From a virus (lineage: Duplodnaviria; Heunggongvirae; Uroviricota; Caudoviricetes): 64,000 nucleotides of DNA. The number at the start of each line of letters is the position of its first letter. The stretch's first letter is position 1. The position numbers were made by a program, and so were the translations under genes. Under the pieces are notes generated by a model. That model was not told where the DNA came from. It was given only the letters and a program-made list of their open reading frames with translations, and searched no databases. Positions 40,972 through 63,914 of the stretch are shown piece by piece. The stretch lies in IMG/VR virus record IMGVR_UViG_3300029914_000004; one strand, 5' to 3'.

Positions 40972-41064
40972 GGGCTATGGGGCTGCTAGGGTGGCCACTG
41001 GTTTTGCACTCCAGAATCATCGAGAAATCGATACAGCGGGATTCAAATTCCCGATAGTCCACCA
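40972..41064 (+). tRNA. tRNA-Ala(TGC) with long variable arm
   Basis: GGGCTAT/ATAGTCC with G3:U70, ACCA; loop TT-TGC-AC; 22-nt variable arm. Confidence 0.8.
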
Positions 41065-41638: not shown

Positions 41639-41756
41639 AGATCAATAGCTCAATTGGTTAGAGCAACGAGATTAACAGATCAAGTCGTAAAGCCACAAGC
41701 CTAAGATACTTGAAGTCACTCGTCGGTTGAAGGTTCGAGTCCTTCTTGATTTACTA
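41639..41756 (+). tRNA. tRNA, probably Leu(TAA), with 41-nt anticodon-loop insert
   Basis: intact D and T arms, stem ACGAG/CTCGT, 48-nt loop 41671-41718. Confidence 0.65.
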
Positions 41757-42078: not shown

Positions 42079-42198
42079 GAGATTGTAGCTCAATTGGTAG
42101 AGCAACGCCCTTTTTTCGGGATGCTTCTTTGAGAGAGCATTCGATGGATGCTTTCAAAAAGGCGCAGGTTGTGGGTTCGATTCCCACCAGTCTCACAA
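42079..42198 (+). tRNA. tRNA-Lys(TTT) with 44-nt anticodon-loop insert
   Basis: GAGATTG/CAGTCTC; CT-TTT[insert about 42115-42158]AA. Confidence 0.7.
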
Positions 42199-42250
42199 AG
42201 ATTTGAAATTAAAACCATCTTCGCATAAATAAAGATGGAGGATCAATTAA

Positions 42251-42865
42251 ATGCCATTAGTAAATTGTCCAAAATGTAATACTGAATTTGAGAATAAAGG
42301 AAAATGGGGAACCAAAAAATTTTGTAGTAGAAAATGTGCCAATTCAAAAGATCGGCCACAAGAGTTAAGAGATAGAGTTTCTAAAAAATTAAAAGGAAGA
42401 ATTGGAAAAAGTATTTTTCTTTCTCCAGAGAAACTCATAAGTCGTAATCTTAAACTTAGAAAAACTTGGGATTTAAAATATGAGAATATTCCATTTGAAG
42501 AACTTTCTTGGGATTTACAAAGATTGCGAGTAATAAAAGAACAAAATAATTCTTGCGGAAAATGTGAAATTACTGAATGGTTTGAAAATCCAATAACTTT
42601 AGAAGTTGATCATATAGATGGAAACCGAAAGAATAATTGTAGAGAAAATTTAATTGCTATTTGTCCAAATTGTCATAGTATTACTACAACATGGCGCGGA
42701 AGAAATAGAAAAACTGTGGATTATAAAACTGATGAAGAAATTTTAAATGTTATTTTACAAACTGAAAATATTCATCAAGCATTAAAATTTCTAAATATGG
42801 CATGTCGAGGAGCCAATTATAAAAGATTACAACAGTTAATGGAAAAAAATAATATCTCTTACTAA
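42251..42865 (+). CDS. HNH homing endonuclease with N-terminal FCS..C Zn finger
   Basis: CPKC, FCSRKCAN, CGKC, LEVDHIDGN..NN.RENL..ICPNCHS; TAAATA upstream. Confidence 0.9.
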   Translation: MPLVNCPKCNTEFENKGKWGTKKFCSRKCANSKDRPQELRDRVSKKLKGRIGKSIFLSPEKLISRNLKLRKTWDLKYENIPFEELSWDLQRLRVIKEQNNSCGKCEITEWFENPITLEVDHIDGNRKNNCRENLIAICPNCHSITTTWRGRNRKTVDYKTDEEILNVILQTENIHQALKFLNMACRGANYKRLQQLMEKNNISY

Positions 42866-42871
42866 ATTTAT

Positions 42872-42976
42872 AGCCGTATAGCTCAATTGGTTCAGAGCAT
42901 TCCCCTTATTTAGGGCCTGTGCATCAGACCTTAAATAAGGGAAAGGTTGATGGTTCGATCCCATCTACGGCTACCA
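42872..42976 (+). tRNA. tRNA-Ile(TAT) with 27-nt anticodon-loop insert
   Basis: AGCCGTA/TACGGCT-ACCA; stem TTCCC/GGGAA; 34-nt loop 42905-42938. Confidence 0.75.
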
Positions 42977-42990
42977 CAAAGTTTAAATGT

Positions 42991-43051
42991 TGGCTTGTAG
43001 CATAATTGGCAATGTGTGACCCTGTTAAGGTCAAAGATGATGGTCCAGCCA
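42991..43051 (+). pseudogene. T-arm-deleted duplicate of tRNA-Asn(GTT)
   Basis: identical to 47275-47351 except GTTCGAGTCCCTCTGAG is replaced by T. Confidence 0.85.
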
Positions 43052-43062
43052 AAATTTAAAGT

Positions 43063-43181
43063 TTCGCTGTAGGGAAAATATACCCCGCTGCATGAGGCAG
43101 AAAGATATTGAGGGGCTGGTCAACGGCTATAGACGCCCAGTGAGTAAATATTTGATGGTGCAAATCCATCCGGCGATACCA
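43063..43181 (+). tRNA. tRNA-like element with shrunken anticodon loop and very large variable insert
   Basis: acceptor TCGCTG/CGGCGA + ACCA, T arm GATGG-TGCAAAT-CCATC, CTGC-ATGAG-GCAG arm. Confidence 0.5.
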
Positions 43182-43188
43182 ATTTTAT

Positions 43189-43323
43189 GGGATGGTAGCT
43201 CAGTAGAAGAGCAATGGCTATGAGGGGTAGTCTAGCGACGGTTAGATGAGACTCAAGTGCAAAAGTCATACGTCGAGAAGTCTGAAGGCCAAGGACATTG
43301 TGCAAATCCCTCTCATCCCATCA
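43189..43323 (+). tRNA. degenerate tRNA-like element with about 60-nt anticodon-loop insert
   Basis: GGGATGG/TCATCCC, D arm GCTC..GAGC, TGGC/GCCA stem; T stem poorly paired. Confidence 0.4.
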
Positions 43324-43395
43324 ATTTTAAAGAAAAGATGTTGGGTTCAATGGTCCGACTTCAAACTAACGTTAAGTCAAGTTTGAATAGTTTAA

Positions 43396-43469
43396 GCGGG
43401 GATAGTTTAAATAGTAGAATATCTGAGTTTCCGCTCAGAAGATGGGTTGCAAGTACCCTAACCGCTCCA
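43396..43469 (+). tRNA. degenerate tRNA-Gly(TCC)
   Basis: CTGAG-TTTCCG-CTCAG (6-nt loop); two acceptor mismatches; TCCA. Confidence 0.5.
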
Positions 43470-43480
43470 ATTTTATATAT

Positions 43481-43565
43481 GCGGGAGAAGCCTACTTGGT
43501 ATGGCACTGGTCTTCCAAACCAGAGATGAAAATCGCTGCGAGTTCAAATCTCGTCTCCCGCTCCA
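43481..43565 (+). tRNA. tRNA-Gly(TCC) with long variable arm
   Basis: GCGGGAG/CTCCCGC-TCCA; CT-TCC-AA; 14-nt variable arm. Confidence 0.9.
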
Positions 43566-43845
43566 TATTTATACATATGGAATAAAGGAAGAAAATTAAA
43601 ATGAAATATTGGTGTAAAAATTGTGAACATCTTCTGCCATTGAAGAACAATGAAAGAACAGAAAATTTCAAAGAATGGTGGATAGAAAATCGAGAACAAT
43701 TCAGAGAACTGCATCTCAATGGAGAGTGTGAAATAAAAACAACTCAGATACAGAAGGTGAATTTATATGCATAAACTTTTGTTTTTCTTAGCATTTGTTA
43801 TAATTGTATTTGTGGTGCATATGTTGAAGTGTAAATAAAGTTTGT

Positions 43846-43916
43846 CGCGGGGTGCAGGTTGCCGTTTCAGGCTCATAACCTTGAAATGTACGTGAGTTTC
43901 GATACTCCCTCCGCAT
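43846..43916 (+). tRNA. degenerate initiator-like tRNA-Met(CAT)
   Basis: CGCGGGG/CTCCGCA with C1:A72 mismatch, CT-CAT-AA; shortened D arm; no CCA. Confidence 0.45.
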
Positions 43917-43967
43917 CTTTTGAGCAGACACGCCGCCATGTTAATAACAAAAGATGCGTGTGAAAGT

Positions 43968-44190
43968 TTAAAATAATAATTTTTTAATTTCCTCAAATGC
44001 AGTATCAGGAGAATAAACACCATCATTAAATGATAAAACTTCCCAACCCGAATTTGTCAATTCTTTGATTTTTATTTTATCTCTGTTTTGAACTTGTTTT
44101 AAAGAAAAATTTTTAATTTTTAGTTGTTTGTAATGCCATGGTCCATTCCAAAGAATAGCAACTTTATAATCATCAAGAATAATTGTTTTG
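43968..44190 (-). pseudogene. inverted remnant of a Vsr/DUF559-like endonuclease C-terminus
   Basis: IILDDYKVAILWNGPWHY...QNRDKIK...GW.V; no credible N-terminus. Confidence 0.5.
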
Positions 44191-44304
44191 CATTGAAACC
44201 TCATATAAATAAAGATATGGCAGGACAAACTTGCAAAACCTCACAAGTGAACAAATATTCACAAGATATTTGTTCTTGCTGCCAATAGTATTTATCTTTA
44301 TTAA

Positions 44305-44375
44305 GGCACAGACAAGGATTTGCGCTCACCCTCATAAAGTGGTGCGAGTGGGATTATTCCCCACCTGTGCCACCA
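44305..44375 (+). tRNA. tRNA(CAT) Met/Ile2 with truncated D arm
   Basis: GGCACAG/CTGTGCC-ACCA; CT-CAT-AA; T-loop ATTATTC. Confidence 0.55.
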
Positions 44376-44757
44376 AAAATAACTAGGAGTTATCAAATGG
44401 CTTATTTACTTAAAAAAGGATATAAAATAGACAAAGGGATCAGAATATATGATAATGAAGAATCATTATTGCCTTGGTGTGATTTTAAAAATTGTAATAC
44501 ATTGGCGTCTCATAATGCTGATCAATATGTTGAGTTAAAATGCAATAAATGGTAGAATTGGTTATCATATCCAAAATTTTTATGCAAAGAACAGGAATTA
44601 ATGGGATGTGATCATCATCCAGTATCTTCAGAAATTGTTTATTTGGATGGACATTCAGAATTTTTTATTAAAATTCCACAAACAAGATGGCATAAACATA
44701 AATATGAGTTTATATTAGCTTTGATTTTTGCGGTACTTTGTGCGATAATTATTTAAG

Positions 44758-44786
44758 TTGACAAAAGATTTTAAAAGTTGTATAGT
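44758..44786 (+). promoter_or_regulatory. sigma70-type promoter
   Basis: TTGACA-N17-TATAGT. Confidence 0.8.
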
Positions 44787-44798
44787 AAAAGAATAGAG

Positions 44799-44869
44799 AT
44801 TTGCAGCACGCCGTAAATGTCTTATGACCTACCTCCAATTTGTTATAGACAACGATTCGTGTTGCAAAT
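44799..44869 (+). ncRNA. small three-way-junction RNA candidate
   Basis: ATTTGCAGCACG/CGTGTTGCAAAT closing stem with two inner hairpins. Confidence 0.45.
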
Positions 44870-44892
44870 AAAAGATATTGGTATAATGAGTA

Positions 44893-44963
44893 GTGCTTGT
44901 AGCTCAGTGGTAGAGCAGCCCCATTAAGAGGGCTGGTCGTTGGTTCGATTCCAACCAAGTATC
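44893..44963 (+). tRNA. tRNA, probably Leu(TAA) short-arm; anticodon uncertain
   Basis: canonical D and T arms; GCCCC-ATTAAGA-GGGCT with one mismatch; no CCA. Confidence 0.55.
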
Positions 44964-45058
44964 AAAGTTATACTAGGCGCAGATAGACCATAATTGGTTC
45001 GCGGCCATGTTGGGAACGTCTCGTGAAATCCATCGCGCCCGCGATCTGAAGTAAAGTT

Positions 45059-45213
45059 TGTGTTAGTTGCTGTATTATTAGCCGAAGGAGCAAGAGCACC
45101 AGATGGAAAACTGGAGATTTGGCATTACGCCAACCAATTGCGTAATGTGTCTGTGATCTAGCTAGGCGAGATGGGATTATCACTATTGGTAGATAACTCC
45201 ACTGACTAACACA
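45059..45213 (+). ncRNA. 155-nt multibranch RNA candidate
   Basis: TGTGTTAGT/ACTAACACA closing stem; CATTACGC/GCGTAATG, CCAG/CTGG, GTGAT/ATCAC helices. Confidence 0.5.
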
Positions 45214-45245
45214 ATTAGATATTAAAAAAAGTAGTGTCGCTGTAA

Positions 45246-45311
45246 GTATAATGTCGTCTAATGGAAGGATAGCGTGAACGCAAGATGCGAGTTCGACTCT
45301 CGCCTTATACT
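45246..45311 (+). ncRNA. tRNA-like RNA lacking an anticodon loop
   Basis: acceptor GTATAA/TTATAC, D-loop TAATGG, perfect T arm GCGAG-TTCGACT-CTCGC, anticodon arm only GCG-TGAA-CGC. Confidence 0.6.
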
Positions 45312-45368
45312 GAAGACACTTGAGAGTTTTCTTTAAACGAAAACTCTCCGCGATTAGTAATACAAGTA

Positions 45369-45478
45369 TGAAATGTCTGACTTGAAGCGCTCTCTGGCAA
45401 GGGCGTAAAGGCCAGATCGATGCAATATCCAAAGGCCAGAGTGCTGATGGAAGTGCAAAGTTCAAGTCAGACATTTCA
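45369..45478 (+). ncRNA. 110-nt rod-like RNA closed by a perfect 18-bp stem
   Basis: TGAAATGTCTGACTTGAA/TTCAAGTCAGACATTTCA; inner CTCTGGC/GCCAGAG. Confidence 0.55.
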
Positions 45479-45489
45479 GTAATTTTATC

Positions 45490-45615
45490 GGGGAGAAACT
45501 ATAGAGTTAGCTATAATGGGGAGAACTAAAGCGATGGCTGGCGATGGCCCAGAAGGAGCTACTTTAGTTTTATGATCTAGAAATAGTTGCTGGTTTCAAC
45601 ACTAGCGCCCCGCCA
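45490..45615 (+). ncRNA. CCA-ended tRNA-mimic candidate
   Basis: GGGG/CCCC-G-CCA; T-like arm GCTGGT-TTCAAC-ACTAGC; AACTAAAG/CTTTAGTT helix. Confidence 0.45.
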
Positions 45616-45698
45616 ATTTAGTAGTGACATTTGTTAGGCAGAGGTTAACGGTTTAGGGCACTCTGCCTGATGATGGAAAGAAATATACTAAAAAGACT

Positions 45699-45911
45699 GT
45701 GCCGAACGAAATATATGAAGCACTACTTGAATATATTGAAGAGTACAACCTTGATTGTGCTGACAATTTTCGATATTCTCCAAAAAATGATCCAGAAGGA
45801 ATGGATGAATATTTAACTATTTCTCAACGTGGGTGTTGTGGTCGTGCTGACTTTTTAGCATGGGAAAATAATGGGCAAGAGTGGGTTATTGGTTGTAATT
45901 ATGGACATTAA
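45699..45911 (+). CDS. small hypothetical protein
   Basis: GCCG..D...G..W.IGCNYGH. Confidence 0.55.
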   Translation: MPNEIYEALLEYIEEYNLDCADNFRYSPKNDPEGMDEYLTISQRGCCGRADFLAWENNGQEWVIGCNYGH

Positions 45912-45931
45912 ATTTAACAAAAAAGGAAAAT

Positions 45932-46450
45932 ATGATCACATTAGAACAATGGTTAAAAGCAATTAAGTATAGAATCACTGAGGGATCAGATTATAATTGG
46001 GAAAGCTATGGACCAAATGCATATAGTTTGGATTATTGGGATCAACTCCACAATGGAGTTGACACTTCAATAATTATCGATAAATTAACTGGAATTGTTT
46101 ATCAATGCGAAGTTTGTGATTATGAAAAGAATGTTGCATATCGCATTATCAATCCAGCCTTTAAAGACAGTCATATTGGAGAAGCTGAGCAGAAAAATCT
46201 TGATCATGGTTATGTTGATGAAGCTTGGGAAAATGTTCCATATTGTGACTCAGAAGTTGATGATTTCCTAGAGAAACTACATGCCATTGTCAATCATGAA
46301 TCATACGATACTCGTTCAAGTGTTTCACTAGATTTAGATGAAAAAACAACATTTACATTGATGAAGATGGCGCATGAAAAAGATATAACTTTTAATCAAT
46401 TAATTTGTAATATTTTAAACGAGGTGTTTTTGAATCCAAATACAACATAA
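45932..46450 (+). CDS. conserved phage protein
   Basis: MITLEQW..AI.YRITEGS.Y.W; C-terminal L..L.KMAHE.DITFNQ. Confidence 0.7.
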   Translation: MITLEQWLKAIKYRITEGSDYNWESYGPNAYSLDYWDQLHNGVDTSIIIDKLTGIVYQCEVCDYEKNVAYRIINPAFKDSHIGEAEQKNLDHGYVDEAWENVPYCDSEVDDFLEKLHAIVNHESYDTRSSVSLDLDEKTTFTLMKMAHEKDITFNQLICNILNEVFLNPNTT

Positions 46451-46462
46451 CTAGATTTATAT

Positions 46463-46540
46463 GGCTCTATAGCTTAATTAGATTAAAGCACTTCACCGTC
46501 AATGAAGGAGATGGGGATGCAACTTCCCTTGGAGCCGCCA
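46463..46540 (+). tRNA. tRNA-Asp(GTC), C33
   Basis: CTTCA-CCGTCAA-TGAAG; G73, CCA. Confidence 0.85.
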
Positions 46541-46679
46541 ATTTTTAAATAGTCTGGTTAAGTCCAGCAAGCGCAGGATACGCGAGAGTTAATGACTCTT
46601 CCACCAGCGCCTTAAATTTAGGAGCAAACTGCCAGAAAATTAGGAATTAGTTCTACTGCTATTAGAAAAAGATTAAAAC

Positions 46680-46755
46680 GGCAACTTAACACTGATGGTC
46701 AGTGTGCTAGACTGAAAATCTAGAAAACTCAGATCGTTACTGAGAGTTGCCACCA
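46680..46755 (+). tRNA. tRNA-Phe(GAA)
   Basis: CTAGA-CTGAAAA-TCTAG; T-loop ATCGTTA; ACCA. Confidence 0.85.
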
Positions 46756-47158
46756 TAAGTTTAGGAGTATTATGACAACAATAACAATTAAGGAAGCAGC
46801 GATTCTTTCTTATCTGTCAAAACAGCCAATTGAATCTGAAAGAATTGAATTAACAAAACGCTTGGGTGTAGAAGCTAAAGAACTTGCTATTTCTTTGATA
46901 AATAAAAAATAATATGAAAATTGAATTAGATTTGACTGAAGATGAAATAAAAATGCTCAAAAAGCTTACAACTACTGGTGGAAATAGAGCCGCAGTTTGC
47001 AGACCAGTTCATGATTCAGTATATTCAAAAATTTGCAAGGCAATAAAGTTAGAAAAAGAAAATCAAGAACCAGTTAAATTTCTTGGATTTTCTGGACCAT
47101 TGATGATTTTTCTGATTATCCATTATTAGCAGAAAATCATAAGAAATAAAATTAAGTT

Positions 47159-47261
47159 CATTCAGTAATTCATTTATCATAGTAGCGAAGTAACGCATGA
47201 GTAAAATCGGAAAAGGTTGTTAGCCAATCCATGATAAAATTCTAGATGGAATTACTGAATG
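47159..47261 (+). ncRNA. about 100-nt rod-like RNA candidate
   Basis: CATTCAGTAATTC/GAATTACTGAATG and TTATCAT/ATGATAA stems. Confidence 0.45.
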
Positions 47262-47274
47262 TTAGTTTAAATGT

Positions 47275-47351
47275 TGGCTTGTAGCATAATTGGCAATGTG
47301 TGACCCTGTTAAGGTCAAAGATGATGGGTTCGAGTCCCTCTGAGCCAGCCA
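47275..47351 (+). tRNA. tRNA-Asn(GTT)
   Basis: TGACC-CTGTTAA-GGTCA; G73, CCA. Confidence 0.85.
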
Positions 47352-47379
47352 AAAATTTAGTTGTTGAAGGGTGTGCCGA

Positions 47380-47769
47380 ATGGCAAGTATGACAAAAGAT
47401 CAAATTAGATATAATGATCCTACAACTGGAAGAAAAAAATATCTTATTAAAAAGGTAACAGATCGCAGAATTACAATTCGCAAAAAAGTAGTAGAAATTT
47501 TGGGAGGAAAGTGTTTGCTATGCGGTTATGATAAGTGTGGAAATGCATTATGCGCACATCATCTTGATCCAAAAGAAAAAGAGTTTGGTTTAAGTTATAA
47601 AGGTTTGTGTAGGAGTTGGATTAAAGTTCTTTCTGAATTAAAGAAATGCGTTTTGCTTTGCGCTAATTGTCATGCAGAAGTGCATGATGGATTGATTATT
47701 CCTAATGAATTAATAATACAAACTAGAAAACGTGTAGAGTGTGAAGAAAGTTTAGTTGTTCCTTCGTAG
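47380..47769 (+). CDS. HNH endonuclease
   Basis: GGKCLLCGY.KC..AL..HHLDP..K.F...ELKKCVLLCANCHAEVH; stop overlaps the next tRNA; flanked by TTTAGTTGTT direct repeats (47356, 47751). Confidence 0.9.
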   Translation: MASMTKDQIRYNDPTTGRKKYLIKKVTDRRITIRKKVVEILGGKCLLCGYDKCGNALCAHHLDPKEKEFGLSYKGLCRSWIKVLSELKKCVLLCANCHAEVHDGLIIPNELIIQTRKRVECEESLVVPS

Positions 47770-47885
47770 CTCAATTGGTAGAGCGGGCGGCTGTGCGAGA
47801 TAGATAATGGAATTTAACCAGTTCAAATCTGGAATCTCGAAAAGTAACCGTCAGGTTGGGGGATCGTGGCCCTCCGAAGGAGCCA
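47760..47885 (+). tRNA. tRNA-Asn(GTT) with 50-nt insert inside the anticodon
   Basis: TCCTTCG/CGAAGGA-GCCA; GGCGG/CCGTC; CTGT[47795-47844]TAA. Confidence 0.75.
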
Positions 47886-47890
47886 AAAAT

Positions 47891-48028
47891 TATAGTGGTG
47901 TGTTTTGAACGGATAACAAGTCAGACTCTATGTGTATACAACGGTGATATGACACTGATTGGGATGGCCGACTGTTGCGAACGGGAATATGACCGTGAAG
48001 TGCCCCAAAGTCTGTGTCTGCCACTATA
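47891..48028 (+). ncRNA. 138-nt structured RNA candidate
   Basis: TATAGTGG/CCACTATA closing stem; CAGAC/GTCTG pairing; GC-richer than flanks. Confidence 0.45.
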
Positions 48029-48381
48029 AATAATTTTATACAATTGTCAGTCAATGATTAGGAAAATATTTCAACAAGGAGAAAATATGGTATATATAAA
48101 TAATAACGGAGTTGTTTTAACAGGAACGGATGCGTGGCCTGTGAATCCATACAAGTCCGAGTCTACAACAAAAATTTTTGAAAATAATGGAGTATCAGAT
48201 TTTACGACGGTACATTTTATAGCAGATGATCCTGGTATTCCGAGAAAATCAGCACGATATAATAATAAACAGAAATTAATTTCAATTTGTGAAAATAATA
48301 ACATATTATATGAAGTCGTTCCTGACGAGTAAAATTATATTTTCTGAAGTTAACATACTATAATTAATCATAAATAATAGT

Positions 48382-48612
48382 ATGAATTATAGTAAACTAT
48401 ATAAAAATATCATTAATAATGCGAAGAATAGAAACAATAATTTATGTTATATTGAATCTCATCATATAATTCCGCGATCTTTGGGTGGAGAGAATGGCAG
48501 TAATAATTTAATAAATCTTACTGCGATAGAACATTTTATATGTCATTTCTTATTGACAAAAATGTATAAAATAATACCGAATTGGTCTAATGGCAATGAC
48601 GCTTCGCTTTGA
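48382..48612 (+). pseudogene. truncated HNH endonuclease running into tRNA-Gln
   Basis: Y.E.HHIIPRSLGG.N...NL..LTA.EHFICH.LL.K, then tRNA sequence. Confidence 0.75.
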
Positions 48613-48650
48613 ACGAAGAAGCACAGATTCGATTTCTGTATTCGGTGCCA
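48576..48650 (+). tRNA. tRNA-Gln(TTG)
   Basis: CTTCG-CTTTGAA-CGAAG; ACCGAAT/ATTCGGT-GCCA. Confidence 0.85.
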
Positions 48651-48895
48651 AAATATTATGAAAAATAAACCAAAAGTTGGACAAAAAATTAGATTAAATA
48701 AATTTGGAGTTAGGCAAATTTATAATAGTTCTATAGCTCCGTCTGGTTTACTGAGGCAAGTGTTTACAATTACTGAAGTAGACGAAGAATCAATGACAGA
48801 GCCAGAAAAACTTGGATGATTGAAGTTGATGATCCAGAGTTAAATCAATTTATGCTTGACAACTGGTGTTTTGATTTAGTGTCATAAATATTAGT

Positions 48896-49384
48896 ATGAG
48901 ATTAAATGAATTTCAAAATAACACAACTTCTACTGAAGTGACCAATTTTGTTAAAGATATAATGCAAATATTGGGTTTATCATCATTTAAATCTCCAGTA
49001 ATTATATATGACGATAATTTTCCTGAAAAAACATTGGGCAATTGTTCATGGTATATTGGAGAAAAAGAAGTTGAAATTCACATTAATATAAAAGTTTTAG
49101 ATTTCAATGACGAAATGATTTTATTTAGGATTTTGGCACATGAATTGTGTCATATGGCAGAATATTTATTGTATTGGATTCCTACTTTAGAAAAACAATT
49201 AAAAATTGTTCATGGAAAAGTTGGATATGAAAAAGAAAAATTTAGAGATTGGTGTAATAACGAAATACAAAAAGCAAGTCATGGACCTCAATGGCAACAT
49301 TTTGCTGATTTATTAAATAGTGAAGTTCCAAATTTTGTTACAAAAACATCAGACAAAAGTTATGATTTAACCAGCAAACAGTAG
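48896..49384 (+). CDS. SprT-like zinc metalloprotease
   Basis: ILAHELCH...HGPQW; MRLNE N-terminus; TAAATA upstream. Confidence 0.75.
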   Translation: MRLNEFQNNTTSTEVTNFVKDIMQILGLSSFKSPVIIYDDNFPEKTLGNCSWYIGEKEVEIHINIKVLDFNDEMILFRILAHELCHMAEYLLYWIPTLEKQLKIVHGKVGYEKEKFRDWCNNEIQKASHGPQWQHFADLLNSEVPNFVTKTSDKSYDLTSKQ

Positions 49385-49521
49385 TAAGCAGAATAACAGA
49401 TAACAAAACTGTAATATGTAAAAAGTAGTTTGCTAAATTTGGAGAACGACTGTAGCCTGATAAAAAGTCGTGGCAGCTTGGAGAGACAGCGAAAATAATT
49501 TAATATAAATGAAGATTTATC

Positions 49522-49550
49522 TTGACAAAGGATAAATAAAGATGTATACT
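49522..49550 (+). promoter_or_regulatory. sigma70-type promoter
   Basis: TTGACA-N17-TATACT. Confidence 0.85.
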
Positions 49551-49580
49551 ACAAGAGTAGTCAGAAATTTGGAGAATAAA

Positions 49581-49655
49581 ATGACATTCAGACATACACA
49601 TATCGAGCCAAGTGACCCACGCATTACAGTCATGGAACCCCGTTTCTGTGTCTGA
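49581..49655 (+). CDS. 24-aa peptide MTFRHTHIEPSDPRITVMEPRFCV
   Basis: GGAG RBS 6 nt upstream, own promoter and terminator. Confidence 0.45.
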   Translation: MTFRHTHIEPSDPRITVMEPRFCV

Positions 49656-49676
49656 AGCTAGATAGTTTGTATTATC

Positions 49677-49708
49677 AAACCTTCTGGCAAATGTCAGAAG
49701 GTTTTTTG
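49677..49708 (+). terminator. intrinsic terminator
   Basis: AAACCTTCTG/CAGAAGGTTT followed by T run. Confidence 0.75.
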
Positions 49709-49925
49709 ATGTTGGAGTGAACATGAAAGAATATAGAATTACAACTCAGAATATAGATTACGGCCAAGAAAATGATTGCGTTATTGATGAGAATGATCCA
49801 ATAAACGAGATTAAGAAATCACTCTTGCTTGGTGGGTTAGGGATGAATAAACCAAAATTGAATACTGAGTTAATTGATAAATTTTGGCCCAAGAAAGATT
49901 AGCAGTGAATTTACCTGCAACAAGT

Positions 49926-50014
49926 GTGCTAGAGGCAACTATCGGTTTGTTGCGCCAGATTGTGACCCTGGACTCGAAAGAGTATTACGGATTCGACTTC
50001 CGCCTAGCACCCCA
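49926..50014 (+). tRNA. tRNA-His(GTG) with long variable arm
   Basis: TT-GTG-AC; C73; 15-nt variable arm ACTC-GAAA-GAGT. Confidence 0.85.
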
Positions 50015-50038
50015 TGTTTAGTAGTAAAGTTTAAATGT

Positions 50039-50126
50039 CGGAATGGCGGCAGGCCTGGTTTGCCTCCACGTTTGGGGCGTGGCGTTCGTAAGAACATCGT
50101 AGGTTCAAATCCTATCATTCCGACCA
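50039..50126 (+). tRNA. tRNA-Pro(TGG) with long variable arm
   Basis: CGGAATG/CATTCCG-ACCA; TT-TGG-GG; 16-nt variable arm. Confidence 0.85.
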
Positions 50127-50167
50127 TAATATTAATAGTAATGTTTCATGTTTATATAAAGTTTAAT

Positions 50168-50246
50168 CAGAGTGAGGGCCATTTGGAAGGCCACTTGGTC
50201 CGGAGCCAAGAAAATCGTGAGAGTTCAAATCTCTCCACTCTGACCA
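50168..50246 (+). tRNA. tRNA-Pro(CGG), C33
   Basis: CTTGG-TCCGGAG-CCAAG; ACCA. Confidence 0.85.
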
Positions 50247-50277
50247 TTTTAAACTAAATACATCTGGAGGGTTTACT

Positions 50278-50574
50278 ATGTATTCAGATGAATTTAGAAA
50301 ATATATGAAAGTAGTTGATGATAATTCTGAAGAAGATTTAGATCAATGGGGTAGACTTGTTAAGAAAATGTTTGGAGAAGATTCTTATGTTGTTAAAGAA
50401 AAAACATCATATGGTCCCAAATATAGAGTTTATGCTAGATTTTATCCACAAGCAATATTGGGGCTCAAAGGAGAAGATGCTGAAATTGAAAAAGCTGTAG
50501 AGAAAGCAAAAGATACTATAGAACATTACAAAACTCCCAAAAAAGCAGTCATAAAATATGAAGGTGGGTGGTAA
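50278..50574 (+). CDS. late-type hypothetical protein
   Basis: TAAATA and GGAGG upstream. Confidence 0.55.
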   Translation: MYSDEFRKYMKVVDDNSEEDLDQWGRLVKKMFGEDSYVVKEKTSYGPKYRVYARFYPQAILGLKGEDAEIEKAVEKAKDTIEHYKTPKKAVIKYEGGW

Positions 50575-50943
50575 ATGAAACTTTGGTTAGATGATATTCG
50601 TGATCCAAAGAGATATGGTTATCATGATATGTATTGGGCTAAAAATTATAATGAAGCGATTGCTGCTTTGAAACTTGGTAAAGTAACATTTGCTTCATTA
50701 GATCATGATATTGGTGCTTGTGAAGATTGTGTAAAATCGTTGTCACACATTGGAGACATGCGCTCGCCTGAGACAACATTTTTTAATCATTGCTCACATG
50801 AAAAATCTGGTTACGATGTAATTTGTTTTATGGAAGATAATGATATATGGCCAACAGACGGTGTAAAAGTTCATAGTATGAATCCAGTTGGCAAAGAAAG
50901 AATGAATCAAGTGATTAGAAAGCAGTATGGAAGAACTTGGTAG
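50575..50943 (+). CDS. cyclic-phosphate-processing receiver-domain (cREC-like) protein
   Basis: MKLWLDDIR, W.KNY.EAI, SLDHD.G, GYD, VHS.NPVG. Confidence 0.75.
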   Translation: MKLWLDDIRDPKRYGYHDMYWAKNYNEAIAALKLGKVTFASLDHDIGACEDCVKSLSHIGDMRSPETTFFNHCSHEKSGYDVICFMEDNDIWPTDGVKVHSMNPVGKERMNQVIRKQYGRTW

Positions 50944-50955
50944 GTATTAATTTGT

Positions 50956-51029
50956 GGAGTATTAGATTAACAGTGGATCGTATCCCTTTCAAGGATAAGG
51001 AGTGGGGGCAGCACCCACATACTCTACCA
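50956..51029 (+). tRNA. tRNA-Glu(TTC)
   Basis: TATCC-CTTTCAA-GGATA; T-loop GGCAGCA; ACCA. Confidence 0.8.
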
Positions 51030-51169
51030 TAAGTTCAAATGCATTTTGCGCTACCTTGCACCTGAATATGAATATACTTGTTGTACTTGTAATAAATTAT
51101 TTAGAACTGATAGAAAGAGAAAAACACAAAATGTTTGTTGTAGCAGAGAATGTAGTTGGCATCAAAAAT

Positions 51170-51245
51170 GATCTATTAGAATAGTTGGTTAGTTCGCAAC
51201 TCCCTCAAAGTTGAAACGAGAGTTCAAATCTCTCATAGATTACCA
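51170..51245 (+). tRNA. tRNA-Glu(CTC), C33
   Basis: CAACT-CCCTCAA-AGTTG; ACCA. Confidence 0.85.
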
Positions 51246-51263
51246 TAAAGTTTGATGATTTAT

Positions 51264-51339
51264 AGGCCTATAGCTCAAGCGGCAGAGCACACGATTGATA
51301 ATCGTGAGGTTGAATCTTCGATTGATTCTAGGCCTACCA
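51264..51339 (+). tRNA. tRNA-Ile(GAT)
   Basis: CACGA-TTGATAA-TCGTG; ACCA. Confidence 0.9.
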
Positions 51340-51350
51340 AAAATTAATAT

Positions 51351-51428
51351 GCGCTCGTATGCCGCTTCGCTTCGAACGAAGAGAAAGCTAATGGATACAT
51401 ACAGGTTCGAGTCCTGCCGAGCGTTCCA
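51351..51428 (+). tRNA. rearranged tRNA-Arg(TCG) with no D arm 5' of the anticodon arm
   Basis: GCGCTCG/CGAGCGT-TCCA; CTTCG-CTTCGAA-CGAAG only 7 nt after the acceptor; 19-nt segment containing GCTAATGGATA 3' of it. Confidence 0.65.
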
Positions 51429-51441
51429 CATTGGAGTTAGA

Positions 51442-52070
51442 ATGAATTGTACTTTATGTAATAAAGAAACAAAAATCCAAAATTTTGTTCGCAATCTTGC
51501 TCAGCAAAATTTTCAAATAAAAATAGAGAACGATCTTTTGATTCACGAGTAAAAATAAGTTCGTCTTTAAGAAATTGTAAATCTCTTTCAACAAGTATTG
51601 AATGTTCAATTTGTGCTAGGAAATTTTATAAATTTGAGTCTAAAGGTAGAAAATATTGTAGTCTTAAATGTTGTGGAATTGCAAAGAAAAATAAATTCAC
51701 TGCTGATTTTTCTCTGAATGGAAAGGGAAATCATAAAAGAGTGTTAATACATGAGCGTGGTTATAAATGCGAACGATGTAAAAATAGTGAATGGATGGGA
51801 ATAGAAATTAATTTGCAATTAGAACATAAGGATGGAAATCATTTTAATAATGAAAAAACAAATTTAGAGCTTTTATGCCTCAATTGCCATAGTCAAACAT
51901 TAACATTTAATCGTAAGAAAACAGCAAAACTTATTTCTGACGATGAATTTTTAAAAGTATTAAATTCATCTAAAAATATTCGTCAATGTTTATTAAAATT
52001 AGGTTTGCAGCAAGGTAGCACAAATTATGATAGAGCCAAAAGATTATTAAGAAGAAATATGCAGCCGTAG
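51442..52070 (+). CDS. HNH endonuclease with Zn fingers, frameshifted at an A5 run
   Basis: MNCTLC; one extra A at 51471-51475 gives NPKFCSQSC ... LEHKDGNHFNN..NLELLCLNCHS. Confidence 0.75.
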
Positions 52071-52147
52071 CCTAGTGGATTCAGGCACCAGTCTACGAAA
52101 CTGGAGAGGAAACTCTAACGCAAGTTCGAATCTTGTCGGCTGCACCA
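52061..52147 (+). tRNA. tRNA-Arg(ACG) with long variable arm
   Basis: CCAGT-CTACGAA-ACTGG; AGAG-GAAA-CTCT arm; overlaps the HNH stop. Confidence 0.9.
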
Positions 52148-62049: not shown

Positions 62050-62709
62050 ATGAATAATATTCAGCAAACTCGATATAAATACCCAAGAACTTTCCATTTC
62101 CCAGAAAGCCCTGGTGCCATGAATGACGATAGGATTCTTGATCCAATAGAGTCTTATGCAAAATGGGATCATGAAGTCGTGATTACTGAAAAGAGAGATG
62201 GCGAAAATTTTTCAGGATATAATGACGGCTAGCATGTGAGAAGTTTGGACTATGAAGCGCATCCAAGCAGAAATCGAATCGCTGCACTTCACGCTCGTTT
62301 CTCTTATCTTATTCCTGATGGTTGGAGAATTTGCGCAGAAAATCTTACAGTGAAACACAGCATCAAGTATAAAGATTTGCAAGAAATTTGTGAAGTATTT
62401 GGAATTTGGAATGGAGAAACTTGTTTAAGTTGGGACGATACTGTGATATTTTCTGCATTATTGGAATTACCAACAGTTCCTATTTTATGGAGAGGAATTT
62501 GGAATCCTGAATATTCTAGCGTGTTTGTAGATCAAATTTCAAGAATGATAAATCCAGAAACTCAAGAAGGATTTGTTGTTCGCCCAACAGCATCATTTCA
62601 AATGAAAGATTTTAATCATTTGGTTGGAAAATGGGTTAGAAAAGGTCACGTTACTTCTGGAGAACATTGGATGCGTTCTCAAATTGAATATAATGAAATC
62701 AGTGGTTGA
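62050..62709 (+). pseudogene. Rnl2-type RNA ligase interrupted by an in-frame TAG (62230-62232)
   Basis: KYPRT.H.P.SPG...DD, TEKRDGEN, *HVRSLD..HPSR, ENL..KHSI, EGFVVR, KWVR..HV; both parts in the same frame. Confidence 0.8.
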
Positions 62710-63820: not shown

Positions 63821-63914
63821 ATGAGTGAAGGGCAATCCGGTTTGGCTCAGCAGTCTCCAAAACTGCCGTCTCTGAGAAGAGCAAATGTAGGTTCAAATCC
63901 TACCACTCATGCCA
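63821..63914 (+). tRNA. tRNA-Trp(CCA) with long variable arm
   Basis: GCAGT-CTCCAAA-ACTGC; 20-nt variable region; GCCA. Confidence 0.85.

Follow-up and report, generated by a model that had tools for sequence, protein, structure and literature searches.

Interrupted tRNA genes and neighbouring HNH genes in the tRNA array of an uncultivated giant peat-bog phage

Interrupted tRNA genes and HNH open reading frames of the array

The 64,000-nt stretch of DNA analyzed here (the window) is part of IMG/VR virus record IMGVR_UViG_3300029914_000004, which represents an uncultivated giant peat-bog phage (Caudoviricetes) and contains 127,373 bases with a GC content of 33% and an estimated completeness of ~49%. 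The public runs containing the window are peat metagenomes, with no RNA run among those listed. A dense tRNA array spans ~40.6-64 kb of the window; ARAGORN identified 24 tRNAs in the window and, with introns allowed, 33 in the record, and Rfam added several weak or odd tRNAs to the ARAGORN set. Using ARAGORN with introns allowed, we found inserts of 27-50 nt in the anticodon loops of four window tRNAs, which share the array with four open reading frames (ORFs) for HNH proteins. The interrupted genes are:

41639-41754, plus strand: interrupted tRNA, anticodon UAA or UAU, with an insert of ~41 nt at ~41675-41715 (Rfam, 52.2 bits; ARAGORN; cloverleaf fold)
42079-42196, plus strand: tRNA-Lys(UUU), with a 44-nt insert after the anticodon at ~42115-42158 (Rfam, 58.1 bits; fold)
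42872-42976, plus strand: tRNA-Ile(UAU), with a 27-nt insert at ~42910-42936 (Rfam, 58.3 bits; ARAGORN)
47760-47885, plus strand: tRNA-Asn(GUU), with a 50-nt insert at 47795-47844 that separates anticodon positions 35 and 36 (ARAGORN with introns allowed)

Rfam scored three of the four interrupted tRNAs at 52-58 bits, on par with ordinary tRNAs; the Asn gene at 47760 is absent from the Rfam tRNA listing of the window. All four fold into a cloverleaf with an extended anticodon arm, and all four inserts are single-copy in the genome. The Asn junction was fixed independently when contigs of four peat DNA runs were compared with the stretch, which gave one useful joint: contigs from two other peat runs join position 47794 directly to 47845. 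Other contig joints were rejected as splice evidence because they had short sides or unknown letters between them, and they probably derive from the tRNAs of other organisms. The spliced Asn anticodon arm is letter-for-letter that of ordinary cellular tRNA-Asn genes. The window inserts are precise insertions rather than assembly noise, and they represent at least three structural kinds. That of the Ile gene lengthens the anticodon arm to a perfect, unbroken 13-bp helix (arm fold z-score -5.15), the Lys insert, whose ends can slide within T and A runs, can form alternative hairpins of 7-10 bp, and the insert at 41639 is weakly structured. Folded alone, the inserts were not clearly stabler than shuffled sequences (z-scores -1.2 to -2.0).

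The inserts at 41639, 42079, and 42872 matched no Rfam family, and the group I intron model RF00028 had no match in the window at E-values up to 1. Group I identity was rejected for the window inserts, which lack a catalytic core, measure 27-50 nt, and have a final base that is not a conserved G among relatives. Introns of the archaeal, bulge-helix-bulge type were likewise rejected, given that no such motif was seen by inspection, that the extended Ile arm is unbroken, and that the Asn junction lies at 35/36. Neither EndA (PF01974) nor RtcB was found in the 127-kb record, which covers about half a genome.

The four HNH ORFs among the window tRNAs comprise one that is intact, one that is short, one 76-aa fragment, and one that is frameshifted. 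They are listed here with the direct repeats that border the second of them:

42251-42865, plus strand: HNH gene of family f1, 204 aa, intact, with a zinc ribbon, an HNH motif, and a C-terminal helical module (family profile E 3.9e-79)
47356-47365, plus strand: direct repeat TTTAGTTGTT, copy 1
47371-47769, plus strand: HNH gene of family f2, 132 aa (family profile E 2.8e-48; weak Pfam match)
47751-47760, plus strand: direct repeat TTTAGTTGTT, copy 2
48382-48612, plus strand: Mob-type HNH fragment, 76 aa, the N-terminal HNH part, ending within tRNA-Gln (48576-48650)
51442-52070, plus strand: paralogue within HNH family f1, with one frameshift in an A-run near 51470 and an open frame at 51465-52070 (E 5.8e-36)

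HNH 42251 is full length when compared with 129 homologues and retains all invariant residues, including the Cys, His, and Asn of the HNH motif; its score against Pfam HNH_3 (23.3 bits) is slightly below the cut-off. The closest HNH homologue (P0001) has 91% identity. Membership in the HNH superfamily is indicated by the invariant residues C102, C105, H121, N133, C138, N140, C141, and H142 of the f1 alignment (A1) and by the motif CxxC..HH..NCHxxxH of the f2 alignment; Pfam scores fall just below curated cut-offs. Against solved structures, the f1 profile gave weak HNH matches only (McrA, GVE2 HNH, and I-HmuI; E 0.2-0.5). The f2 gene at 47371 is without the C-terminal zinc ribbon and helix-turn-helix found in its Asn-associated relatives, and the full-length counterpart of the fragment at 48382 has ~390 aa in the one cultured-phage relative that was checked. 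Three of the four window HNH genes are decaying or damaged.

The positions of these genes agree with a preliminary description of the region. HNH 42251 lies between the insert-bearing Lys and Ile tRNAs, 55 nt downstream of the former, and the latter begins 7 nt past its stop codon. HNH 47371 overlaps the 5′ end of the insert-bearing Asn tRNA by 10 nt, its final codons consisting of spacer and tRNA 5′ end. The direct repeats reported around this cassette are indeed present; TTTAGTTGTT also occurs a third time, at 44119, and is the usual spacer motif preceding tRNAs in the array. HNH 48382 is truncated at the Gln gene as described, and HNH 51442, the paralogue of 42251, follows the rearranged Arg(UCG)-like tRNA at 51351-51427 and overlaps tRNA-Arg(ACG). 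The interrupted tRNA at 41639, labelled Leu in that description, has an anticodon that reads UAA or UAU.

tRNA-shaped mini-introns and the tRNA-Leu(UAA) series

The insert of the window Asn gene has an architecture of its own:

47795-47844, plus strand: tRNA-shaped mini-intron, consisting of a 7-nt acceptor-like strand, 15 nt, a 5-nt T stem (4/5 paired), a TTCAAAT loop, a 7-nt return strand, and a 4-nt tail

It belongs to a single structural family with four further members (in loci L018, L080, L105, and L032); the five host genes, three for tRNA-Asn and two for tRNA-Leu, belong to different phages. In this family, a 7-nt strand directly at the 5′ splice site is followed by 11-36 variable bases and by a 5-nt stem (3-5 paired) that closes a T-loop, T[T/G]C[A/G]AAT; the T-like stem leads directly into the 7-nt return strand, from which exactly 4 bases (TCCA in L080) extend to the 3′ splice site. 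Pairs were counted by script, MAFFT having misaligned the 5′ strand. Acceptor-like positions 2-6 are paired in all five members, four of these positions with two or three pair types (i.e., compensatory changes), and T-stem positions 3-5 are likewise paired in all five. The predicted shape is that of a tRNA acceptor/T minihelix, and the Asn insert begins and ends where a tRNA has its 5′ end and its CCA-equivalent 3′ end. The L032 insert has D-like and anticodon-like hairpins as well. The inserts at 41639, 42079, and 42872 do not have this geometry. A loose geometric scan for tRNA-shaped inserts nested in tRNAs gave 96 matches, compared with 12 in shuffled sequences; by a reading of the list, the only matches recognized as nested in a tRNA were four of the five known members, and L032 was missed.

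Among relatives, the tRNA-Leu(UAA) gene was found in three states with identical exons. The uninterrupted state is represented by L123, a syntenic relative, and by at least 120 other viral contigs that have an identical anticodon arm; the upstream flank of L123 is 86% identical, and its intronless allele equals the joined exons of L105-L110. In the second state (L107-109), the gene carries a 50-nt insert and no HNH gene, and in the third (L105 and L110), the insert is accompanied by an HNH cassette. The intron differs by one base among the five copies read, the flanks being 80-86% identical. The site of interruption, CTT|AAAA, corresponds to U34/A35 or, by a 1-nt slide, to U33/U34.

A second insert family was observed in L071 (4137-4523) and L080 (4142-4501), where each phage has three tandem tRNAs with inserts of 16-64 nt. 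Located 5′ of the anticodon, each of these inserts has a hairpin and, after it, a common motif similar to TAACAGCAAG. The insert at 41639 in the window opens with TTAACAGATCAAG, which resembles this motif.

HNH families and their association with interrupted tRNA genes

The f1 family (42251 and its pseudogene paralogue 51442) was represented by 129 homologues and by 80 viral loci found with its profile, nearly all of these loci within tRNA arrays. The closest f1 relatives of 42251, with 41-52% identity, occur in eight distinct contexts (the window, L018, L019-24, L111, L112/113, L114, L115, and L116/117), every one of which adjoins tRNA-Lys(UUU). Members of f2, the family of 47371, adjoin an insert-bearing tRNA-Asn(GUU) in six loci (the window, L005, L006, L009, L013, and L116), although L005, L006, and L009 have one common gene order and may be one lineage; outside the window, all five of these Asn genes are class I with an extra variable arm. 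When the nearest tRNA was used as a label on a tree of 94 f1 proteins, 53 changes were required as opposed to the 68.7 expected, and none of 300 shuffles reached 53; shared synteny of related phages contributes to this signal, which is supportive of site specificity and is not proof of it. The clades of f1 follow Lys(UUU), Leu(UAA), and Thr(UGU), a fixed association with one target gene each.

Clean borders of presence and absence were seen in relatives: a 723-bp HNH cassette directly follows the CCA of tRNA-Leu in L105 and L110 and is missing in L109, with homologous flanks on both sides. No close relative of the window copies was found. Because f1 genes are almost confined to arrays, because their clades are tied to particular tRNAs, and because of this clean cassette indel in a relative, the window HNH genes appear to be selfish elements of the homing type with tRNA genes as their targets.

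Several f1 genes lie inside long tRNA-Leu(UAA) introns that resemble group I, with a shared core motif and a terminal G (L053, L058, L089, L096, and L100); a tRNA-shaped identity was rejected for these HNH-carrying introns on account of that resemblance. ORF-less group I introns occur in the phage tRNA(UAA) genes of L035 (2964-3161) and L037 (2918-3103), with Rfam scores of 71 and 64 bits, each with a free-standing HNH gene beside it. In several members of f1 (L019:5942-6003, L111, L112, L114, L115, and L116), an inverted repeat of 12-13 bp contains, in its 3′ arm, the ribosome-binding site and start codon of the HNH gene, an arrangement that probably silences translation. Homing-endonuclease genes of T4 share the trait of a start codon buried in an inverted repeat.

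The preliminary description had further proposed that each nuclease and mini-insert spread as one unit, the insert destroying the recognition site in the donor. The layout of collaborative homing, in which an ORF-less insert lies beside a nuclease gene, is present in the window, where 42079 and 42872 flank 42251 and 47760 follows 47371; of the seven tRNAs flanking HNH genes there, five are odd, compared with ~13 of ~40 overall by a rough eye count (hypergeometric p 0.027). In relatives, an HNH clade (SH-aLRT 96) has five of its six members beside a tRNA(UAA) gene interrupted at CTT|AAAA (ARAGORN labels three of these five genes Arg or Phe). The interruptions are of different kinds, namely two true group I introns (Rfam, 71 and 64 bits) and, in three members, two tRNA-shaped mini-introns of 50-71 nt. 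An HNH gene lies directly downstream of 2/5 intron-bearing Leu copies and of 0/69 intronless ones (p 0.004), the five being close kin.

Enrichment was then calculated over all loci, with each distinct tRNA sequence counted once and adjacency defined as lying within 100 nt of an HNH gene. Insertion-bearing tRNAs of all types were enriched near HNH genes (26/87 against 42/352; odds ratio 2.5, p 0.0015; without the window, odds ratio 2.4, p 0.004). This signal was due to class I tRNAs bearing an extra variable arm (odds ratio 3.5, p 0.0008); for short inserts next to HNH genes within arrays, with the window included, the odds ratio was 1.8 (p 0.16). At the level of whole arrays, short inserts were found in 29/507 tRNAs of the HNH-selected loci and in 1/666 tRNAs of the comparison arrays (p 3e-10), which amount to a megabase, were picked only for an uninterrupted tRNA-Leu, and contain 8 HNH genes.

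A number of observations weigh against a tight link between the two elements. With the window excluded, short anticodon-loop inserts within arrays showed no enrichment beside HNH genes (odds ratio 1.26, p 0.61). Inserts without an HNH neighbour include that at 41639, where the absence of an HNH gene had already been noted, the orthologous Asn intron in L018, the Leu introns of L107-109, and the tandem sets of L071 and L080, in which no tRNA adjoins an HNH gene. Conversely, in four of the eight contexts, HNH genes of the Lys clade lie beside an uninterrupted tRNA-Lys, and L018 has a second, canonical and uninterrupted, Lys(UUU) gene 87 nt from its HNH gene. The positions of the inserts vary (35/36, 36/37, and the variable loop), so that a single recognition site is an assumption, and three of the four window HNH genes look inactive. 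In addition, the statistics above treat relatives as independent, and the HNH-rich set represents other phage lineages than the HNH-poor one.

An obligate unit of nuclease plus insert is refuted, because inserts occur without HNH genes, HNH genes occur beside plain tRNAs, and, outside the window, short inserts within arrays show no enrichment near HNH genes. The idea of a spreading unit thus survives in part: the layout, the Leu clade, and the shared arrays agree with it, and each element is also found alone. The expected co-occurrence of insert and HNH gene across relatives fared similarly, being seen in the Leu series and at the array level and not for short inserts outside the window. A dependence of inserts on HNH neighbours did not hold.

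Explanations, known systems, and further features of the array

In our judgment, the best reading is a facultative form of collaborative homing or immunity, in which two separable selfish elements share one tRNA array; we would give it an even chance of being correct. It is plausible that the inserts protect the phage against its own nucleases. In outline, each HNH clade would recognize the DNA of one tRNA's anticodon-arm and variable region, and HNH genes and inserts would come together through a common target, the few bases that encode the anticodon arm. HNH genes would insert in the spacers between tRNAs and subsequently decay. A genome would host an HNH gene only if its own tRNA copy could not be recognized, cleavage being blocked by an interruption or by an extra variable arm. 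Since the sequence of a tRNA is hard to change, tolerated insertions would be an easy escape, and these may be of two types, an extra variable arm, which need not be removed, or an anticodon-loop insert, which would be spliced out. The HNH gene would then persist beside the interrupted tRNA, and co-conversion would move both together. The order in which the insert is present first and the HNH gene is added later was seen twice (L018 vs. the window; L107 vs. L105), and this order, together with the later decay of the HNH genes, fits the proposed escape mechanism.

At the RNA level, the inserts would presumably be removed by proteins, in the case of the tRNA-shaped one by tRNA end-processing nucleases, and the exons would be sealed by the phage's own Pnkp and Rnl1. 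The tRNA-shaped insert would end exactly at the cuts made by RNase P and the 3′-end tRNA nuclease. Among the genes of the phage are those for a T4-type Pnkp, with a HAD_PNKP match (4.9e-25) and a kinase domain, and for a ligase of the Rnl1 type (2.5e-14), as well as Rnl2-like genes; Rnl1 was found in 4/6 records with interrupted tRNAs and in 0/5 controls (p 0.06). Counting against this scheme, the complete 170-kb genome of L080, which has a tRNA-shaped intron, contained no Rnl1 or RtcB. We propose only tentatively, and as something rather unlikely, that the tRNA-shaped mini-intron may be a new class of intervening sequence, cut by RNase P precisely at its 5′ end and by a 3′-nuclease just past its CCA-like 4-nt tail and resealed by Rnl1 (with Pnkp where healing is required), and that cheaply removed inserts, together with variable arms, may serve as portable immunity cassettes by which tRNA-targeting HNH genes settle in, and co-convert, tRNA genes that could not otherwise change.

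The alternative that fares best is that inserts and HNH genes accumulated together without any functional link. The arrays of jumbo phages may tolerate junk, with HNH genes landing in spacers and inserts arising or spreading on their own; every HNH gene in a dense array has tRNA neighbours, some of which would be interrupted by chance. The lack of short-insert enrichment beside HNH genes once the window is excluded speaks for this explanation, as do the many inserts without an HNH neighbour and the many HNH genes with plain neighbours. Also in its favour, the array-level contrast sets different phage lineages side by side, and the cassette at 47371 is flanked by the ordinary spacer motif and could have been placed there by spacer recombination. 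Against it, variable-arm insertions are enriched next to HNH genes, five of six members of the Leu(UAA) HNH clade adjoin genes in which two unrelated types of intron occupy a single site, HNH genes in the Leu series occur only beside intron-bearing copies, and f2 genes adjoin an insert-bearing Asn gene in six loci, the window included. On balance, we regard accumulation without a link as possible, though not probable.

According to a second alternative, the oddities are scars of repair: sloppy mending of HNH-induced breaks would capture pieces of tRNA, and the interrupted, truncated, and rearranged copies would be redundant pseudogenes. Oddities do occur beside HNH genes (the truncated Asn gene at 42991, the rearranged Arg gene at 51351, the 5′ tRNA stubs of L111 and L116, and the odd Lys gene of L114), the Asn and Leu inserts resemble pieces of tRNA, and the interrupted Lys and Asn genes have uninterrupted isoacceptors nearby. 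Scars of this kind are hard to reconcile with an exact 7 + 5 + 7 + 5 + 7 + 4 geometry maintained by compensatory changes in three Asn and two Leu genes, with a Leu intron that is near-invariant although its flanks have diverged, or with interrupted genes that match normal tRNAs in Rfam score, and we consider this explanation improbable.

Lys(UUU) and Asn(GUU) tRNAs, both among the interrupted species, are classical targets of anticodon nucleases. A function of the inserts at the RNA level apart from the HNH genes, in which they delay or gate maturation, or act as decoys for or resist host anticodon nucleases, with phage healing and sealing enzymes finishing the tRNAs, would suit the presence of Pnkp, Rnl1, Rnl2-like, and cREC_REC genes in the phage and the distribution of Rnl1 described above, but is very improbable, as it leaves unexplained the ties between HNH clades and tRNAs, the HNH clade at interrupted Leu genes, and the variable-arm enrichment, and as the complete L080 genome has neither Rnl1 nor RtcB.

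The facultative partnership favoured here has precedents in collaborative (trans) homing, for which F-CphI with the ORF-less psbA group I intron of cyanophage S-PM2 and T4 mobE with the I-TevIII intron have been described (PMC6083498, PMC2790892; reviewed in PMC2988022), and in which the intron is thought to break the enzyme's site (PMC6083498, PMC2790892). As in these pairs, a free-standing endonuclease gene lies beside a gene with an ORF-less insert in the window and, with true group I introns, in L035 and L037. Unlike in these pairs, the targets are tRNA genes, the window inserts are 27-50 nt long without a group I core, and the putative partnership is loose. T4 SegB is a free-standing homing endonuclease of the T4 tRNA cluster that drives preferred inheritance of the tRNA region (PMC2330249). 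It resembles the window HNH genes in being a selfish endonuclease gene within a phage tRNA array and differs in that it is a GIY-YIG enzyme and involves no interrupted tRNAs. The HNH genes are of a known kind, that of free-standing homing endonucleases in phage tRNA clusters, and it is the pairing of free-standing HNH genes with interrupted tRNA genes that would be a new form of collaborative homing.

Short, conserved, "enigmatic" tRNA introns have been reported in Lak megaphages, one of which "may itself encode a tRNA," with no mechanism given in the part of the report considered here (Devoto et al. 2019, PMC6784885). Like the window inserts, these are short introns in the tRNAs of huge phages, and their presence varies among related genomes; Lak phages belong to another group and habitat, and neither a link to HNH genes nor an exact tRNA-end geometry is stated in that part (PMC6784885). 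In bacteria and plastids, tRNA-Leu(UAA) carries group I introns, some of which have homing endonucleases that target the anticodon region, and all phage introns known at the time of a 2014 review were in protein-coding genes (PMC3984707). The Leu mini-introns of the relatives interrupt the same CTT|AAAA site as the bacterial and plastid introns, and f1 HNH genes also lie inside group I-like tRNA-Leu introns; unlike group I introns, the window inserts have no catalytic core or conserved terminal G and cannot self-splice. They resemble the protein-spliced tRNA introns of archaea and eukaryotes in being short anticodon-loop inserts that need removal by proteins and re-ligation, and differ from them in that the Asn insert lies at 35/36, not at 37/38, and in that inspection revealed no bulge-helix-bulge. 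The tRNA-shaped mini-intron is the least charted part of the system.

Genes for tRNAs are among the most constrained targets of homing endonucleases, and mutation of the site offers the host genome no easy escape from its own enzyme. If inserts and variable arms do give escape, this would provide one explanation for the "enigmatic" tRNA introns of huge phages and would explain why long variable arms are frequent on phage class I tRNAs and why HNH genes crowd in tRNA arrays. The tRNA-shaped intron, for its part, offers a bench-testable proposal for protein-dependent tRNA splicing in bacteria that would use only tRNA-processing enzymes and a phage ligase for anticodon-loop repair.

Relatives of the region itself were scarce. 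A megablast of the region against cultured phages gave no match, no related locus was found in viral contigs via a 338-aa neighbour gene, exact-pattern scans recovered no alleles of the Ile or Lys genes with or without insert, and the one metagenome scan yielded a single distant locus, L111. Further features of the array are:

42991-43052, plus strand: truncated tRNA-Asn, an exact copy of the tRNA-Asn at 47275 minus the T arm (Rfam, 31.5 bits; identity read from the sequence)
47275-47351, plus strand: uninterrupted phage-type tRNA-Asn(GUU), 20 nt upstream of HNH 47371 (ARAGORN and Rfam)
50575-50943, plus strand: cREC_REC protein with a cyclic-phosphate-processing receiver domain, inside the tRNA array (Pfam PF20274, E 3.4e-21)
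51351-51427, plus strand: odd Arg(UCG)-like tRNA, with the anticodon arm directly after the acceptor strand and D-arm-like sequence beyond (sequence and fold)
52061-52147, plus strand: tRNA-Arg(ACG), with an extra variable arm of 15 nt and overlapping the last part of the HNH pseudogene (ARAGORN and Rfam)

The truncated Asn gene, just 3′ of the Ile gene, is the scar of a past duplication or recombination linking two HNH modules. The odd Arg(UCG)-like tRNA was called by neither ARAGORN nor Rfam. A 71-nt class I tRNA body at 44893-44963 has the anticodon UAA (Leu by anticodon) and an anticodon loop of possibly 8 nt. A match to RNA ligases of the Rnl2 type (PF09414, E 1.3e-22), containing a single in-frame TAG, lies at 62173-62637, just upstream of a further tRNA block, and a group of RNA-repair genes past the end of the window (G000:C1:103585-108298) comprises an HNH_5 gene, the T4-type Pnkp, an Rnl2-like ligase, and an Rnl1-like ligase. 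Long hairpin variable arms were observed on the class I tRNAs Ala, Gly, Pro, Arg, and Trp (genes of 85-94 nt at 40972-41064, 43481-43565, 50039-50126, 52061-52147, and 63821-63914), among which only Arg(ACG) adjoins an HNH gene.

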